The notes beneath the pieces were generated by a model that did no database searches, had not been told where the DNA came from, and saw only the letters and a program-made list of their open reading frames with translations. A program made the position numbers and the translations under genes. Below, piece after piece: positions 5,537 to 40,571 of a stretch of DNA of 64,000 nucleotides (position 1 is the first letter of the stretch; every line of letters begins with the position of its first letter). The DNA lies in NCBI GenBank assembly GCA_046484285.1, contig JAWOBP010000156.1, forward strand, positions 2,518-66,517. Reading direction: 5' to 3'. The DNA comes from Polyangia bacterium. GTDB taxonomy: Bacteria > Myxococcota_A > Polyangia > JAAYKL01.

Positions 5537-5609
5537 TGGAGCCGATGGGACTTGAACCCACGACCTCCGCGTTGCGAACGCGGCGCTCTCCCAGTTGAGC
5601 TACGGCCCC
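5537..5609 (-). tRNA. tRNA-Ala (anticodon CGC)
   Basis: Reverse complement GGGGCCGTAGCTCAACTGGGAGAGCGCCGCGTTCGCAACGCGGAGGTCGTGGGTTCAAGTCCCATCGGCTCCA folds as cloverleaf; G3:U70 Ala identity pair; anticodon loop TTCGCAA; CCA encoded. Ends anchored on overlapping ORF-track frame. Confidence 0.85.
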
Positions 5610-23382: not shown

Positions 23383-24174
23383 TCAGTAGCTGTCCGGGGG
23401 CGGGTCTACCAGCTGGAACTGGGCTTCCAGCTTGGACAGGTCGGGCAGCTCCTCGAGGTTGGGCATCAGCGTTATCTCGATGCGGCGGTTGCGCGCCTTT
23501 CCGCGCTTTTTGCGGTTGGGCGCGACCGGTTGGTGGTGGGCGTAGCCCGCGGCCGAGAGCCGCCTGCCCGGAACGCCGTGCTCGATCAGGAACTGCACGA
23601 CCTCCACGGCCCTGGCCGCGCTGAGGTGCCAGTTGCTCTCGTGGGGGTTCTCCTCGCTGAGCGGAACGTTGTCCGTGTGCCCGGCAACCTGGAAGTCGCG
23701 ATCCTTTATCCCCCCGAAGACCTCGGCGACGCTTTTCAGAGTCTCCCTGCCCTTGTCGCTCAGCGAGGCCTCGCCCGACTCGAACAGCACCGCGCTCGGC
23801 AGCGCGATCACCATCCTGCCCCTCCGGATCCGCACCTGGAGGTCGCCCGCTTCGATCATCTTCTCGAGGCTGTCCAGCAGCCCCTGGAGCGTCTCCTGCC
23901 TGCGCGCGGCGAGATCGGCCGCCTCCCGGCTTCTTTCGACCTGCAACCGCAGACCCCGCAGCTCGGCCCGGGCGCTGTCCAGCTCGCCTTCGAGCTTCTC
24001 GAGCGCCGAGACCTGCTCGCGAAGGGTCTCGTTTTGCGACGAGATCGATTCGTTGAGCTCGGTCAGTTCGGCGATCCGCTTCTCCTGCTCGGAGCAGCAG
24101 CCGGAAATGACGAGCGCGGTGGTCAGCAGACCTCCGATCGCCAGCGGCGATCGATGCTTGCCGATGTAGAGCAT
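23383..24174 (-). CDS. OmpA/MotB-like peptidoglycan-binding lipoprotein with coiled-coil
   Basis: Lipobox LTTALVISGCC; heptad coiled-coil region; C-terminal OmpA-like motifs GHTDNVP...NWHLSAARA...NRRIEI. Confidence 0.75.
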   Translation of the reverse strand: MLYIGKHRSPLAIGGLLTTALVISGCCSEQEKRIAELTELNESISSQNETLREQVSALEKLEGELDSARAELRGLRLQVERSREAADLAARRQETLQGLLDSLEKMIEAGDLQVRIRRGRMVIALPSAVLFESGEASLSDKGRETLKSVAEVFGGIKDRDFQVAGHTDNVPLSEENPHESNWHLSAARAVEVVQFLIEHGVPGRRLSAAGYAHHQPVAPNRKKRGKARNRRIEITLMPNLEELPDLSKLEAQFQLVDPPPDSY

Positions 24175-31778: not shown

Positions 31779-31849
<71 letters not shown>

Positions 31850-37381: not shown

Positions 37382-37666
37382 CTACTCCGGAATCTCGTCC
37401 GCCTCCACGTACTTGGCCAGGATGTCCGCGGCCTGCACGAGGCGGTGGGGCTTGCCGTCGATTCTTATCTCCTCTCCGGAGAACTTTTTGTAGATCACCC
37501 GATCGCCGATCTCGATCTCGTCGCTGGCGTCCGCGGCCAGCGCCACCACCTTGCCTTCGTCGGGACGCTGCTTGGCGTTTTCGGGCAGGATGATCCCACC
37601 GCTGGTCGTCTCTTCTGGTTCGAATTGTTCGAGTAGCACGTAATCACCCAGTGGTTGCAGCTTCAT
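37382..37666 (-). CDS. groES: co-chaperonin GroES (no groEL downstream)
   Basis: MKLQPLGDYVLLEQFEPEETTSGGIILPENAKQRPDEGKVVALA... 94 aa; AGGAGG RBS; start at aa 113 of ORF 37382..38002. Confidence 0.85.
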   Translation of the reverse strand: MKLQPLGDYVLLEQFEPEETTSGGIILPENAKQRPDEGKVVALAADASDEIEIGDRVIYKKFSGEEIRIDGKPHRLVQAADILAKYVEADEIPE

Positions 37667-37686
37667 CGCCTCCTCCTTCGCGGTGC

Positions 37687-37932
37687 TCACGCCGCGCTTT
37701 GTTCGGGCGTCAGGTCGAGCAGCTCGTCGATCTTGGCCCGGTCGAAACCCACGACGTAGCGCCCCTCTATGTCTATTTGGGGCACGCCGGTCTGTCCGGT
37801 CCTGGCCATCAGGCTGCGCGCCGCGGCCGGGTCCTTTGAGACGTCGACCTCGATGAACCGCACGCGCCGCTTGCGCAGGTAGCTCTTGACCCTGTTGCAC
37901 CAGGGGCATCTCTCGCCCACGTAGACGACCAC
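37687..37932 (-). CDS. glutaredoxin-like protein (CPWC active site)
   Basis: MVVYVGERCPWCNRVKSYLRKRRVRFIEVDVSKD...GVPQIDIEGRYVVGF: thioredoxin-fold Grx/NrdH-like; GTG start. Confidence 0.7.
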   Translation of the reverse strand: MVVYVGERCPWCNRVKSYLRKRRVRFIEVDVSKDPAAARSLMARTGQTGVPQIDIEGRYVVGFDRAKIDELLDLTPEQSAA

Positions 37933-37982
37933 GCGCTTGGCGCGCTTGCCCTCCCCGGAGGGCTGCGGAGTCGCCGAGGTCT

Positions 37983-38146
37983 CTAGCCCTCGTCAACCCC
38001 ACAATGCCGGGTCGGGCCGGCCCTCATCGACGATCCCTGCGTCACTCCTCCTCGAATTGGCACCGCCAGTCCTTCGTCGTCGTTCCTTGGCCTCGCCGAT
38101 GATCTCTCGCCCCGTACCCGAAATCGTCGGGTTGACGAGGCACTAG
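37983..38146. mobile_element. MITE-like element, copy B (inverted relative to copy A)
   Basis: 164 bp CTAG...CTAG, reverse complement identical to 24468..24632; lies between glutaredoxin-like gene and the vapB2 promoter. Confidence 0.6.
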
Positions 38147-38204: not shown

Positions 38205-38241
38205 TTGACATTACGCAAAGAGGTCATTATTATCATAATAA
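38205..38241 (+). promoter_or_regulatory. sigma70-like promoter TTGACA-17-TATTAT with overlapping operator palindrome TTATTATcATAATAA
   Basis: TTGACA 38205-10, TATTAT 38228-33, perfect 7-bp-arm palindrome 38227-41; AGGAG RBS 38253-57; AT-rich island in 70 % GC DNA. Confidence 0.55.
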
Positions 38242-38264
38242 CCAATACGAACAGGAGCGTTTCG

Positions 38265-38540
38265 ATGCCCACTATCGAGATTCCAGCCGCAGAAGCCAAA
38301 AGGCGCCTGGCCGACTACCTTAGCCGCAGTTCCCACGGTCAGTGCCGCGTGGTGGTCACCCGCCGGGGCAGACCGCTGGCCGCGATCGTCAGCATCGAGG
38401 ACTTGCAGGATCTCGAGCAGCTCGAAAAGCGCCGGGGGCTGGCCTCGGTGGCGGGCAAGTGGAGAGGCTTCGCCGAGATAGCCGCTGATATCGAAGCGGC
38501 CAGGAGCTCCGGCGGCGAAGGTCGCGATGTATCTCTTTGA
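38265..38540 (+). CDS. Phd/YefM-family antitoxin
   Basis: MPTIEIPAAEAKRRLADYLSRSSHGQCRVVVTRRGRPLAAIVSIEDLQDLE = Phd/YefM N-terminal fold; 14-nt overlap with downstream PIN gene. Confidence 0.75.
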   Translation: MPTIEIPAAEAKRRLADYLSRSSHGQCRVVVTRRGRPLAAIVSIEDLQDLEQLEKRRGLASVAGKWRGFAEIAADIEAARSSGGEGRDVSL

Positions 38541-38931
38541 CACCGACGTGCTGACCACCGTGCTCAAGCCGCGTCCTCCCCGGCGCCTGCTCGAGAGGCT
38601 GTCGGATGTTCCGGCCTCTCGGCAGTTCACCAGCACCGTCACCATCAGCGAGATAGTCTACGGCGCGCACAAGAGCGACAGGACCGACCACCATATCCGC
38701 AACCTCGAGCAGGTGCTGCTGCCCGCGGTCAACGTGTTGGATTTCGACGCCGAGGCTGCGTACCTGGCCGGTGCGATTCGAGCCCGGCTCGAAGCGCGCG
38801 GCCTGCCCCTGTCGTTCGCCGACATCCAGATCGCGGCGATCGCCCGCGCCAACGAGCTGACCCTGATCACCGGCAACGAGCGGAACTTTCGCCGGATCGG
38901 GGATCTGCGCGTGGAAAGCTGGCTGGCCTGA
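38527..38931 (+). CDS. vapC: PIN-domain toxin VapC
   Basis: MYLFDTDVLTTVLKPRPP...TISEIVYGA...ADIQIAAIARANELTLITGNERNF PIN motifs. Confidence 0.8.
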   Translation: MYLFDTDVLTTVLKPRPPRRLLERLSDVPASRQFTSTVTISEIVYGAHKSDRTDHHIRNLEQVLLPAVNVLDFDAEAAYLAGAIRARLEARGLPLSFADIQIAAIARANELTLITGNERNFRRIGDLRVESWLA

Positions 38932-38993
38932 GCCTGGTCTATTTTCGTCAAAAATTTGTTGACAGCCGCGCCCGACCAGCTTAGAAGCGAATC

Positions 38994-39062
38994 ATGTTCG
39001 CTTCGCGCGCAATCACGACGCTCTCCCGTCGCTGGTGGCGGCCCTGCCTCCTCCACGGGTAG
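38994..39062 (+). CDS. putative trp leader peptide (22 aa, tandem Trp codons)
   Basis: ATG 38994; MFASRAITTLSRRWWRPCLLHG-TAG; TGG TGG at 39033-38; start codon embedded in inverted repeat GAAGCGAA/TTCGCTTC; lies 130 nt upstream of trpB2. Confidence 0.55.
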   Translation: MFASRAITTLSRRWWRPCLLHG

Positions 39063-39149
39063 GGCGCGCGCGGACCCAGGACGACCACACAGTCAACGAG
39101 CAGGCAACGCGGACCGCGACCCCACCCGGGCTCGCGGTTCCTTTTTTTC

Positions 39150-39182
39150 GGCCGTGGGCAACCAGCTCGCGGCCTTTTTTTT
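39150..39182 (+). terminator. intrinsic terminator (attenuator) directly upstream of trpB2 RBS
   Basis: 10-bp stem GGCCGTGGGC/GCTCGCGGCC (two G-U) + T8, followed immediately by GGAGG and ATG 39195. Confidence 0.6.
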
Positions 39183-39194
39183 GGAGGTGAAACG

Positions 39195-40571
39195 ATGAGC
39201 GAAAAACCAGTCAAGAAGGTGCTGCTCGGCGAAGACCGGATTCCGCGGGCCTGGTACAACGTGCTGGCCGATCTGCCCGAGGCTCCGCCTCCGCCCCTGC
39301 ACCCGGCGAGCGGCGAGCCGCTCGGACCGCGAGACCTGGAGCCGCTTTTTCCGATGGCGCTGATCGAGCAGGAGGTCTGCAGCGACGCGGAGGTGCCGAT
39401 TCCGGACGAGATCAGGGAGAAGCTGGCGATCTGGAGACCGACGCCGCTGGTGCGGGCCACCGCGCTGGAGCGCGCGCTCGATACTCCGGCGCGGATCTTC
39501 TACAAGAACGAGTCGGTCAGCCCGCCGGGATCGCACAAGCCCAACACCGCGGTGGCGCAGGCATACTACAACCGCGAGGCCGGAACCGCGCGGATTGCGA
39601 CCGAGACCGGAGCCGGGCAGTGGGGCAGCGCGCTGGCCTTCTCCGCGGCGCAGTTCGGGATCGGCTGCGAGGTGTTCATGGTGCGCGCCTCGTACGACCA
39701 GAAGCCCTACCGCCGCACGATGATGGAGACCTGGGGCGCCAGCTGCGTGGCCAGCCCCAGCCCCGAGACCCGCACCGGGCGCGGCTTTCTCGAGCGCGAC
39801 CCGGAAACGCCCGGCAGCCTGGGGATCTCGATCGCCGAGGCGGTCGAGGTGGCGATGGAGCGCGACGACACCAAGTACGCGCTGGGATCGGTGCTCAACC
39901 ACGTGCTGTTGCACCAGACCGTGATCGGCCTGGAGTCGGCCGAGCAGCTGGCCTCGGTCGGCGCCGAGCCCGACGTGGTCGTGGGCTGCGTGGGCGGCGG
40001 ATCCAACTTCGGCGGAGTGGCCCTGCCGTTCGTCAGGGACAGGATCGCGGGGCGCGATCTGCGGATCGTCGCGGTCGAGCCGACCTCGTGCCCGACCCTG
40101 ACCCGCGGTCCCTACACCTACGACTTCGGCGACTCGGCCGGGCTCACCCCGCTGGTTGCGATGTACACCCTCGGCCACGGCTTCATTCCGCCGCCGATCC
40201 ACGCCGGAGGCCTGCGCTACCACGGCGTGGCGCCGATCATCGCCCAACTGCGGCGCGACGAGCTGATCGAGGCGATCGCGGTCGACCAGGTCGAGGCGTT
40301 CGAGGCCGGCGTCGCCTTCGCCCGCAGCGAGGGGTTGATCCCGGCGCCCGAGACCTGCCACGCGCTGGCCGCGGTGGTCCGCGAGGCGCGCCGTAGCGCC
40401 GAGGAGGGCCGCGCGCGCAACATCCTGGTCTCCTTCAGCGGCCACGGCCTGATCGACCTGGCCGCCTACGACGCCTTTCTGCGCGGCGAGCTCCGGCCCC
40501 ACGTTCTCGACCAGGACGGGATCGAGAACGCCCTGGAGGCGGTCGCCGAGCTGCCCGATCCTCCCGGCTGA
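39195..40571 (+). CDS. trpB: TrpB2-type tryptophan synthase beta-like PLP enzyme
   Basis: 458 aa; [20 protein letters not shown] (PLP lysine), [11 protein letters not shown] motifs and length characteristic of the TrpB2 clade; no trpA adjacent. Confidence 0.8.

Follow-up and report, generated by a model that had tools for sequence, protein, structure and literature searches.

A predicted leader-peptide attenuator with tandem terminators upstream of a stand-alone trpB2 gene in a Polyangia bacterium

The role of stand-alone TrpB2 enzymes is debated: they may salvage indole, or they may act as an alternative, possibly phosphoserine-dependent, tryptophan synthase. One way to ask what a cell wants such an enzyme for is to ask what switches its gene on. 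The gene considered here lies in a stretch of 64,000 nucleotides from a Polyangia bacterium (contig JAWOBP010000156.1 of assembly GCA_046484285.1, positions 2,518 to 66,517 of the forward strand), which we call the window and number from its first letter. It is trpB2 (39195..40571, + strand), encoding a TrpB-like pyridoxal phosphate (PLP) enzyme of 458 amino acids. In front of it, on the same strand, lie a short open reading frame (ORF) with two adjacent tryptophan codons and two hairpins, each followed by a run of U.

This arrangement raises two questions. What would sense tryptophan ahead of a lone gene? And how would RNA polymerase ever reach trpB2 with two terminators in series before it? 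A first-pass annotation of this DNA answered the first question by proposing ribosome-mediated attenuation. Our comparison of related loci supports that proposal: the tryptophan-codon ORF is conserved, and covariation is found in the stem of the first terminator (T1), in an antiterminator formed by segments 2 and 3 of the leader, and in a hairpin formed by segments 1 and 2. We conclude that the element is very probably a ribosome-mediated leader-peptide transcription attenuator that couples monocistronic trpB2 to the supply of charged tRNA-Trp. Around this core we infer a leaderless start, a kinetic competition between folds, a relay that disarms the second terminator (T2) and the response to tryptophan itself.

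A conserved run of tryptophan codons ahead of trpB2

The product of the gene carries a PALP domain and scores well above the cut-offs of two TrpB2-type models, NF009057 (690.5 bits; cut-off 366) and TIGR01415 (622.3 bits; cut-off 518.85), whereas it falls below that of canonical trpB (TIGR00263, 142.8 bits; cut-off 392). These scores place it among the TrpB2-type enzymes. A large protein database contains a protein identical to it (100%), from a metagenome-assembled genome (MAG) labelled 'Polyangia bacterium'. Upstream lies a Phd/VapC toxin-antitoxin pair, whose vapC is on the same strand and ends at 38931; the ORF downstream is convergent and matched no family. The gene thus stands alone, as the first-pass annotation had said.

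The leader ORF (38994..39062, MFASRAITTLSRRWWRPCLLHG) is also as first described: 22 codons, with the putative regulatory codons TGG-TGG at 39033..39038 and a TAG stop at 39060-62. Short ORFs that begin with ATG and contain two adjacent tryptophans (WW) number only three in the whole window, both strands counted. A second ORF with a tryptophan run, at 23480-23545 (+) with WWW (MRRLRAFPRFLRLGATGWWWA), was rejected as spurious; it is antisense within an ORF of 263 amino acids (23383-24174, minus strand), and no terminator follows it.

Is the leader ORF conserved? A collection of genomes at species level held one close relative, L001, an uncultured Myxococcales MAG with a TrpB2 95% identical to that of the window; the rest were at most 64% identical. 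Intermediate relatives (65-73% identical) came from a large protein database and reside on contigs L081-L088, L170 and L171. The clade compared below consists of ten loci (L001, L081-L088 and L170) from Polyangia/Myxococcota-type MAGs and metagenome contigs, with TrpB2 proteins 66-95% identical. When their upstream regions were compared, a check that had been suggested at the outset, all ten recovered relatives proved to keep both an in-frame leader ORF with a tryptophan run and the T1 hairpin. The intergenic regions that hold these ORFs extend about 220-360 nt before trpB2. With the window included, 11 of 11 loci have the ATG at a fixed distance from the -35 box, the ORF in frame with the UGG run, and the stop codon inside segment 2.

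The relatives' runs read WWW in eight loci and WCWWRW or WRW in the others. The peptides are MFASCAATALFGRWWWPCLLHG (L001), MNALNTTPNRMWWWRSSLG (L081), MTTTPCIHRWWWPAPLG (L082), MIKSMVSSLSSRRWCWWRWPVAR (L083), MMTNLSARSFYWWWPNPLG (L084), MMLKTGEARHLWRWRPVHNG (L085), MEIRRPAFRWWWRFTRRG (L086), MMRTSGQIRRWWWRTRRG (L087), ...GHATGWWWRGN (L088) and MKATKRTCARLWWWRCS (L170). In L001 the codon following TGG-TGG is TGG, as against CGG in the window. Residues at the N-terminus are not conserved across the relatives, and those of the window and L001 differ at six positions, while the stretch from the tryptophan codons to T2 is almost invariant between these two. This pattern indicates that the RNA and the regulatory codons matter, not the peptide. 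The genes that flank the clade loci are unrelated to one another, and when the window is compared with L001, conservation sets in about 10 nt upstream of the -35 box. The unit that has been kept is therefore the promoter, leader, hairpins and trpB2.

A further relative with low GC content (L171 2368-2487, equivalent to L172 449-568; 65% identity) has a WW-R-W ORF of 39 codons that runs through a single terminator hairpin. It could be an assembly frameshift or a different variant of the mechanism.

The putative promoter of the leader and trpB2 has a -35 box, TTGACA, at 38959..38964 and, after a spacer of 17 nt, a -10-like hexamer, TAGAAG, at 38982..38987. TTGAC[AGC] is found 35-39 nt 5' of the leader ATG in 11/11 loci, and a hexamer starting with TA follows at a spacing of 17-18 nt in 10/11. 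In the 11 loci compared, this geometry is kept, with the ATG 6-9 nt past the -10-like hexamer, and no Shine-Dalgarno (SD) sequence was seen before the ATG. A leaderless mRNA is the simplest reading of such an arrangement. We therefore regard the leader ORF as probably leaderless, its ATG lying at the predicted transcription start site (TSS).

The first-pass annotation had also placed this ATG within an inverted repeat, GAAGCGAA (38984-91)-tcatg-TTCGCTTC (38997-39004). The repeat (38984..39004) does exist, with the ATG in its loop; it is a perfect 8-bp match (-11.4 kcal/mol) and is significant in the window, where 1 of 300 shuffles did as well. It is not conserved, however: L001, though 95% identical, has an uncompensated mismatch, and the repeat is absent from the other nine loci. 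Its 5' arm, moreover, is upstream of the predicted TSS. We rejected it as a sequestering hairpin or operator of the core device. The repeat is probably lineage-specific and outside the mechanism; it may be a lineage-specific operator or may have arisen by chance.

Two terminators and an antiterminator

The first of the two hairpins, T1 (-20.2 kcal/mol), is formed by segment 3, its 5' arm and loop (39111..39127), and segment 4, its 3' arm (39128..39140). A U7 tract follows at 39142..39148, making T1 a full intrinsic terminator in its own right, which had gone unnoticed before. The second, T2 (-19.1 kcal/mol), has its arms in segment 5 (39150..39159) and segment 6 (39165..39174) and ends in a U8 tract (39175..39182). 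Here the terminator scan agrees with the earlier description of a final 10-bp stem and T8 (39150-39182) directly before the GGAGG and ATG of trpB2. Long T runs are rare in this DNA, which is 69% GC: runs of at least six number only 15 on both strands of 64 kb, and two of these are found here, 27 nt apart. The end of T2 abuts the SD sequence of the gene (GGAGG, 39183..39187, 7 nt 5' of the ATG), leaving no room for a separate trpB2 promoter, so transcripts must pass both T1 and T2.

The two hairpins were first thought to be mutually exclusive because they reuse one 3' arm, GCTCGCGG. The repeat is real; its second copy is at 39165-72, as given, although the first is at 39130-39137 and not at 39131-38. 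Mutual exclusion is another matter. Both T1 and T2 are present in the minimum free energy (MFE) fold, which makes them terminators in tandem rather than alternative structures. The repeated arm does, however, allow a third pairing, between the 3' arm of T1 and the 5' arm of T2, that excludes both terminators.

Comparison of the loci argues for both hairpins. The T1 stem is 93.8% paired over the 11 loci, as against 30-42% in slid controls; four of its pairs have changed on both sides, and 0 of 500 shuffles reach its covariation score. The T2 helix is 87.5% paired in eight loci, compared with at most 48% when slid. Canonical tracts of U7-U10 follow both hairpins in the window and six other loci; T2 with its U tract is found in the window, L001, L081, L085, L086, L087 and L170.

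What could prevent T1 from forming? A whole-leader MAFFT alignment was of little help, misplacing the 5' arm of T1 in the window and in L001 because the spacer between segment 2 and T1 varies. Per-element alignments were used instead, and pairings were tested free of any alignment by comparing the duplex energies of cognate and non-cognate partners under permutation. Segment 1 (GCCCUGCCU, 39041..39049) pairs with 39057-65, joining the sequence just past the tryptophan codons to the stop-codon region. The resulting 1:2 hairpin (39041-39065, -15.1 kcal/mol) is in the MFE fold of all loci; the cognate test gave p=0.0016, with the hairpin present in 9/10 loci.

Segment 2 itself (CGGGUAGGGCGCGCGCGG, 39056..39073), which surrounds the stop codon, has a second potential partner and would supply the 5' strand of an antiterminator. 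The duplex of segment 2 with 39114-39128 is worth -20.1 kcal/mol; 39057-73 pairs with 39114-27, and the region 39056-39128 folds to -28.4 kcal/mol. In each locus, 13 nt round the leader stop show complementarity to the distal 5' arm and the loop of the T1 found there, as in L081 (GGGUAGAGCG with CGCUCUGCCC), L085 (GGAUAAGGCG with CGCCUUAUCC) and L087 (GGGUAGCGCC with GGCGCUGCCU). Cognate duplexes average -17.0 kcal/mol, compared with -11.8 kcal/mol for non-cognate ones, and 0 of 200,000 permutations were as good (p<5e-6). Of 10 T1s, 7 pair best with their cognate partner; broader regions gave p=0.00036. This covariation identifies the pairing of the stop-codon region with the 5' arm and loop of T1 as the antiterminator, 2:3.

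The position of the tryptophan codons fits such a switch. In all loci the last of them lies 12-21 nt 5' of segment 2. A ribosome stalled there, whose footprint extends to about +12, would sit over segment 1 but keep clear of segment 2. A ribosome that is terminating would mask segment 2, since the stop codon falls within that segment or no more than 6 nt before it. When transcripts ending before segment 4 were folded with a ribosome on the last tryptophan codon, 9 of the 11 loci had the 2:3 helix in their MFE structure; the helix cannot form when the ribosome has reached the stop codon.

Could the short ORF be fortuitous or untranslated, and the hairpins constitutive tandem terminators of the vapBC operon or of a small RNA, with trpB2 expressed by leakage or from elsewhere? 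Two facts fit this idea: T1 and T2 dominate every equilibrium fold, and vapC ends at 38931 on the same strand. In Sinorhizobium, moreover, a released attenuator RNA is reported to work as a small RNA (PMC6614838). Yet the relatives keep leader and hairpins although their upstream gene differs, is often divergent or is missing altogether. The fixed placement of the ATG, UGG run and stop codon in 11/11 loci also speaks against the idea. The covariation of the antiterminator has no role in a plain terminator, and trpB2 has no space for another promoter. We consider this explanation very improbable.

Alternatively, the sensor might be a factor acting in trans: uncharged tRNA-Trp through a T-box, a TRAP-like protein or a small-molecule riboswitch. 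Such control of trp genes is known in Firmicutes and some other phyla, and a leader of about 200 nt is long enough to accommodate it. TRAP sites in Bacillus comprise 9-11 (G/U)AG repeats spaced by 2-3 nt and overlap the antiterminator; the window's 201-nt leader has three (G/U)AG triplets and those of its relatives have 1-8. The T-box model found no match at E<=10 in 38600-39500 and none at gathering score in 12 leaders. At that score, the window and 11 related loci contain no Rfam family except tRNA. What is conserved is the in-frame run of tryptophan codons and not the spacer that separates segment 2 from T1. A trans-acting factor in place of the stalled ribosome is very improbable.

The mechanism and what weighs against it

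We propose that the attenuator would work as follows. Transcription from TTGACA/TAGAAG would begin at or next to the leader AUG, and the 22-codon leader would be translated without a 5' untranslated region (UTR). When tryptophan is ample, the ribosome would reach the stop codon (39060-62) and cover segment 2 (39056-73); after its release, segment 2 would be held in the 1:2 hairpin. Segments 3 and 4 would then pair to form T1 with its U7 tract, and any polymerase escaping T1 would meet T2 and its U8 tract. When charged tRNA-Trp is scarce, the ribosome would stall at UGG-UGG (39033-38), covering segment 1, with its footprint ending about 10 nt before segment 2. Segment 2 would pair with 39114-28 once that sequence is transcribed, blocking T1. 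The freed 3' arm of T1 would in turn pair with the 5' arm of T2 (39130-39 with 39150-59); T2 would be blocked as well, and polymerase would enter trpB2.

Several observations weigh against this account, some against its core and others against its final step. The window has two tryptophan codons only, where most relatives have three. The TAGAAG hexamer lacks the usual final T, and a generic promoter scan made no call at TTGACA/TAGAAG. Equilibrium folding never predicts the switch: T1 has a probability above 0.8 under almost every ribosome mask. Since T1 wins at equilibrium whenever segment 4 is present, the switch must be kinetic if it operates at all. Attenuation in the E. coli trp operon likewise depends on kinetic trapping, its terminator being thermodynamically favoured. 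Equilibrium folding with ribosome masks thus speaks neither for nor against the switch, and this shortfall of the modelling should not be taken as positive evidence.

The hairpins themselves are not uniform across the clade. The second is weak in L083 and absent in L088, and neither hairpin is followed by a U tract in L082 (2416-2500) or L084 (2407-2480). In part of the clade, then (L082, L084 and perhaps more), the hairpins might not terminate transcription, and the same leader sensor might act through Rho, RNA stability or translation. L082 lends itself to this idea, since the outer helix of its second structure extends into the SD sequence. Both loci nevertheless retain a leader with WWW, complementarity for the antiterminator and a pair of strong GC hairpins, and the U tracts of the window and six other loci are those of ordinary intrinsic terminators. 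The window's MFE fold pairs the mRNA's 5' end (UUCGCUUC) with the trpB2 SD; we rejected this pairing, which is not above shuffles and is not conserved. A non-terminating variant of this kind seems improbable.

How, on the attenuation model, is T2 to be overcome? The antiterminator blocks T1 only. The pairing of 39130-39 with 39150-59 (4:5; -13.2 kcal/mol), with the T1 U tract as its loop, would disarm T2, and it is possible in all nine loci that have a second hairpin, at -12 to -22 kcal/mol. It has no covariation to support it: the cross-locus test gave p=0.19, with z about -2 relative to shuffles. The arms are conserved across the loci, leaving no covariation with which to test a relay. T2 shows only two compensatory pairs of its own, and the likeness between the arms of the two terminators could reflect a past duplication. 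We put the chance that a 4:5 relay disarms T2 at about even.

The other possibility is that only T1 is regulated and T2 is a leaky backup terminator or insulator, itself unregulated, that caps trpB2 expression at a low level, its arms a remnant of tandem duplication. The lack of 4:5 covariation and the scant covariation of T2 fit this view, as do the loci L083 and L088, where T2 is weak or absent and the other parts of the device are present, and the core CCGCGRG/CYCGCGG common to the T1 and T2 arms in all loci. On the other side, a U8 terminator of -19 kcal/mol just before the SD sequence would stop most transcripts even in starved cells unless it were disarmed. All nine loci with a second hairpin retain 8-12 bp of 4:5 complementarity, and such complementarity also persists in the distant locus L092 (see below). 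The T2 arms of L084 have changed through transitions, which preserve wobble pairing with segment 4. Finally, the 4:5 loop is short (7-11 nt), so the pairing would form before segment 6 is made. Regulation of T1 alone strikes us as unlikely, though it deserves real weight.

If a relay does exist, a single sensor would change the register of five successive pairings and disarm two full intrinsic terminators in series, and the off state would be very tight. The broader claim, a leaderless two-terminator relay (1:2, 3:4 and 5:6 giving way to 2:3 and 4:5) together with widespread wiring of stand-alone trpB2 to tRNA-Trp, we hold tentatively, at somewhat less than an even chance.

Known attenuators, distant relatives and the role of TrpB2

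The element as modelled closely resembles E. coli trpL. Both have a short ORF with adjacent UGG codons, the 1:2/2:3/3:4 logic, a GC-rich terminator with a U tract, a ribosome at the stop codon that masks segment 2, an antiterminator that depends on kinetics, and a target in tryptophan synthesis. There is, however, no detectable homology: in a permissive scan of Rfam 15, the Trp_leader family RF00513 scored 14.8 bits against a threshold of 41 (E=6.2). Unlike trpL, the leader ORF is predicted to be leaderless, with no 5' UTR or SD sequence before it; a non-conserved spacer of about 40 nt separates segments 2 and 3; the antiterminator uses the loop of the terminator; a second terminator is present; and a single TrpB2-type gene takes the place of trpEDCBA.

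A parallel to the relay is the his leader of Salmonella and E. coli. It has six segments that pair as A:B, C:D and E:F or as B:C and D:E, and only its last hairpin terminates. Here too a chain of hairpins would shift register on stalling (1:2, 3:4 and 5:6 versus 2:3 and the tentative 4:5), but 3:4, the hairpin in the middle, is itself a complete terminator, U tract included.

Leaderless attenuators have precedents. In Deinococcus deserti, 14 leader peptides have been predicted, including one before trpEGD, with the TSS at -1 by TSS mapping (PMC4007540), and mycobacteria have attenuators with leaderless short ORFs encoding polycysteine, likewise with mapped TSSs (bioRxiv 10.1101/834739). Our element is like these attenuators and those of corynebacteria in placing the ORF at the 5' end of the transcript, although here that placement is predicted from promoter geometry, and the lineage (Myxococcota) and target gene differ. 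In Actinobacteria, Seliverstov et al. (2005) predicted trp attenuators by comparative genomics, with UGG-containing leader ORFs, GC-rich terminators, U tracts, and conserved triples of the GGCC/GCC type common to antiterminator and terminator (PMC1262725). The 'trpB2A' attenuator of Corynebacterium diphtheriae is not a precedent for ours: it has a single terminator, and its gene is a second operon copy beside trpA and not a stand-alone TrpB2-type (TIGR01415) gene.

The first-pass annotation knew of no such attenuator for TrpB2-type paralogs or in myxobacteria. A search of the full-text literature, which leaves subscription papers uncovered so that an earlier mention is possible, found no leader-peptide attenuation of TrpB2-type genes; nor, within the same coverage, did it find trp attenuation in myxobacteria or deltaproteobacteria. 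A Geobacter genome paper mentions trpB2 but no leader. The element is very probably an uncatalogued member of the classical class of leader-peptide attenuators, with an unusual target.

A few features of the surrounding DNA may be recorded here. The Phd/YefM antitoxin and PIN (VapC) toxin pair (38205-38931, +) adjoins the leader promoter, and a strong promoter-like site, TTGACA-17-TATTAT, lies at 38205-38233. One relative in the gene list, P0006, has a Phd and ParE pair at the same place before trpB2; L001, at 95% identity, has no toxin-antitoxin pair there. The sole matches to Rfam at gathering score in the window are tRNA genes at 5537-5609 (-) and 31779-31849 (-). An ORF of 206 amino acids at 37382-38002 (-) matches Cpn10/GroES in its C-terminal 90 residues; this mechanical call is about twice the usual length of GroES, and the true start is probably further downstream.

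How far does such control of trpB2 extend? We surveyed 157 diverse trpB2 loci (55-64% identity) from genome and metagenome scans. A short upstream ORF with WW, WWW or WWWW was found at 28 of them (~18%), compared with 1 of 157 on the reverse complement. A terminator-like hairpin with a U run precedes trpB2 in 17 of the 28 loci with a WW-type ORF but in 14 of the 129 without one. Taxa with such ORFs include Spirochaetota (L004, L005), Syntrophorhabdaceae (L010) and Actinomycetota (L057, L060). Tryptophan attenuation of stand-alone trpB2 seems widespread, and its origin or divergence seems to have happened repeatedly. Across unrelated phyla, ORFs with WWW or WWWW, 100-300 nt 5' of trpB2 and mostly followed by a terminator-like hairpin, occur in L004, L005, L010, L057, L060, L092, L098, L100, L102, L127, L137, L147, L152 and L154/L155/L162/L169.

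Are these leaders related to those of the clade? A regular expression for the clade's T1 motif found no match outside the clade in about 0.9 Mb of fetched loci, and a metagenome scan with the clade alignment returned, among the matches listed, only relatives of 55-63% identity and no new clade members. Leaders from other phyla are thus not recognisably homologous, with the exception of L092. This locus (857-1204), from a sediment metagenome of low GC content with 62% TrpB2 identity, has a leader that likewise starts MFA and contains WWW. Its promoter is TTGACA-17-TTAGAA, and it has two or three terminators in tandem, with arms that could form a pairing of the 4:5 type. L092 is probably a distant member of the same leader family.

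The mechanism is of a textbook class and will not surprise a specialist; the value of the element lies in the gene attached to it. Its contribution is to tie stand-alone TrpB2 directly, through regulation, to the charging of tRNA-Trp, in a clean and testable architecture. With it, leader-peptide attenuation reaches Polyangia/Myxococcota-type genomes, where initiation is apparently leaderless. The element is absent from Rfam and could be added there as a family. The layout of tandem terminators with a possible relay is compact and testable, and may serve in tight synthetic switches. If the broader claim is true, the wiring of trpB2 to tRNA-Trp would span Myxococcota, Spirochaetota, Desulfobacterota-like bacteria and Actinomycetota, a connection undescribed so far. 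TrpB2 would then be, in vivo, a tryptophan synthase or an indole-salvage enzyme induced by starvation. An attenuator that reads tryptophan codons would be direct evidence, from regulation, that TrpB2 is wanted in cells short of charged tRNA-Trp.

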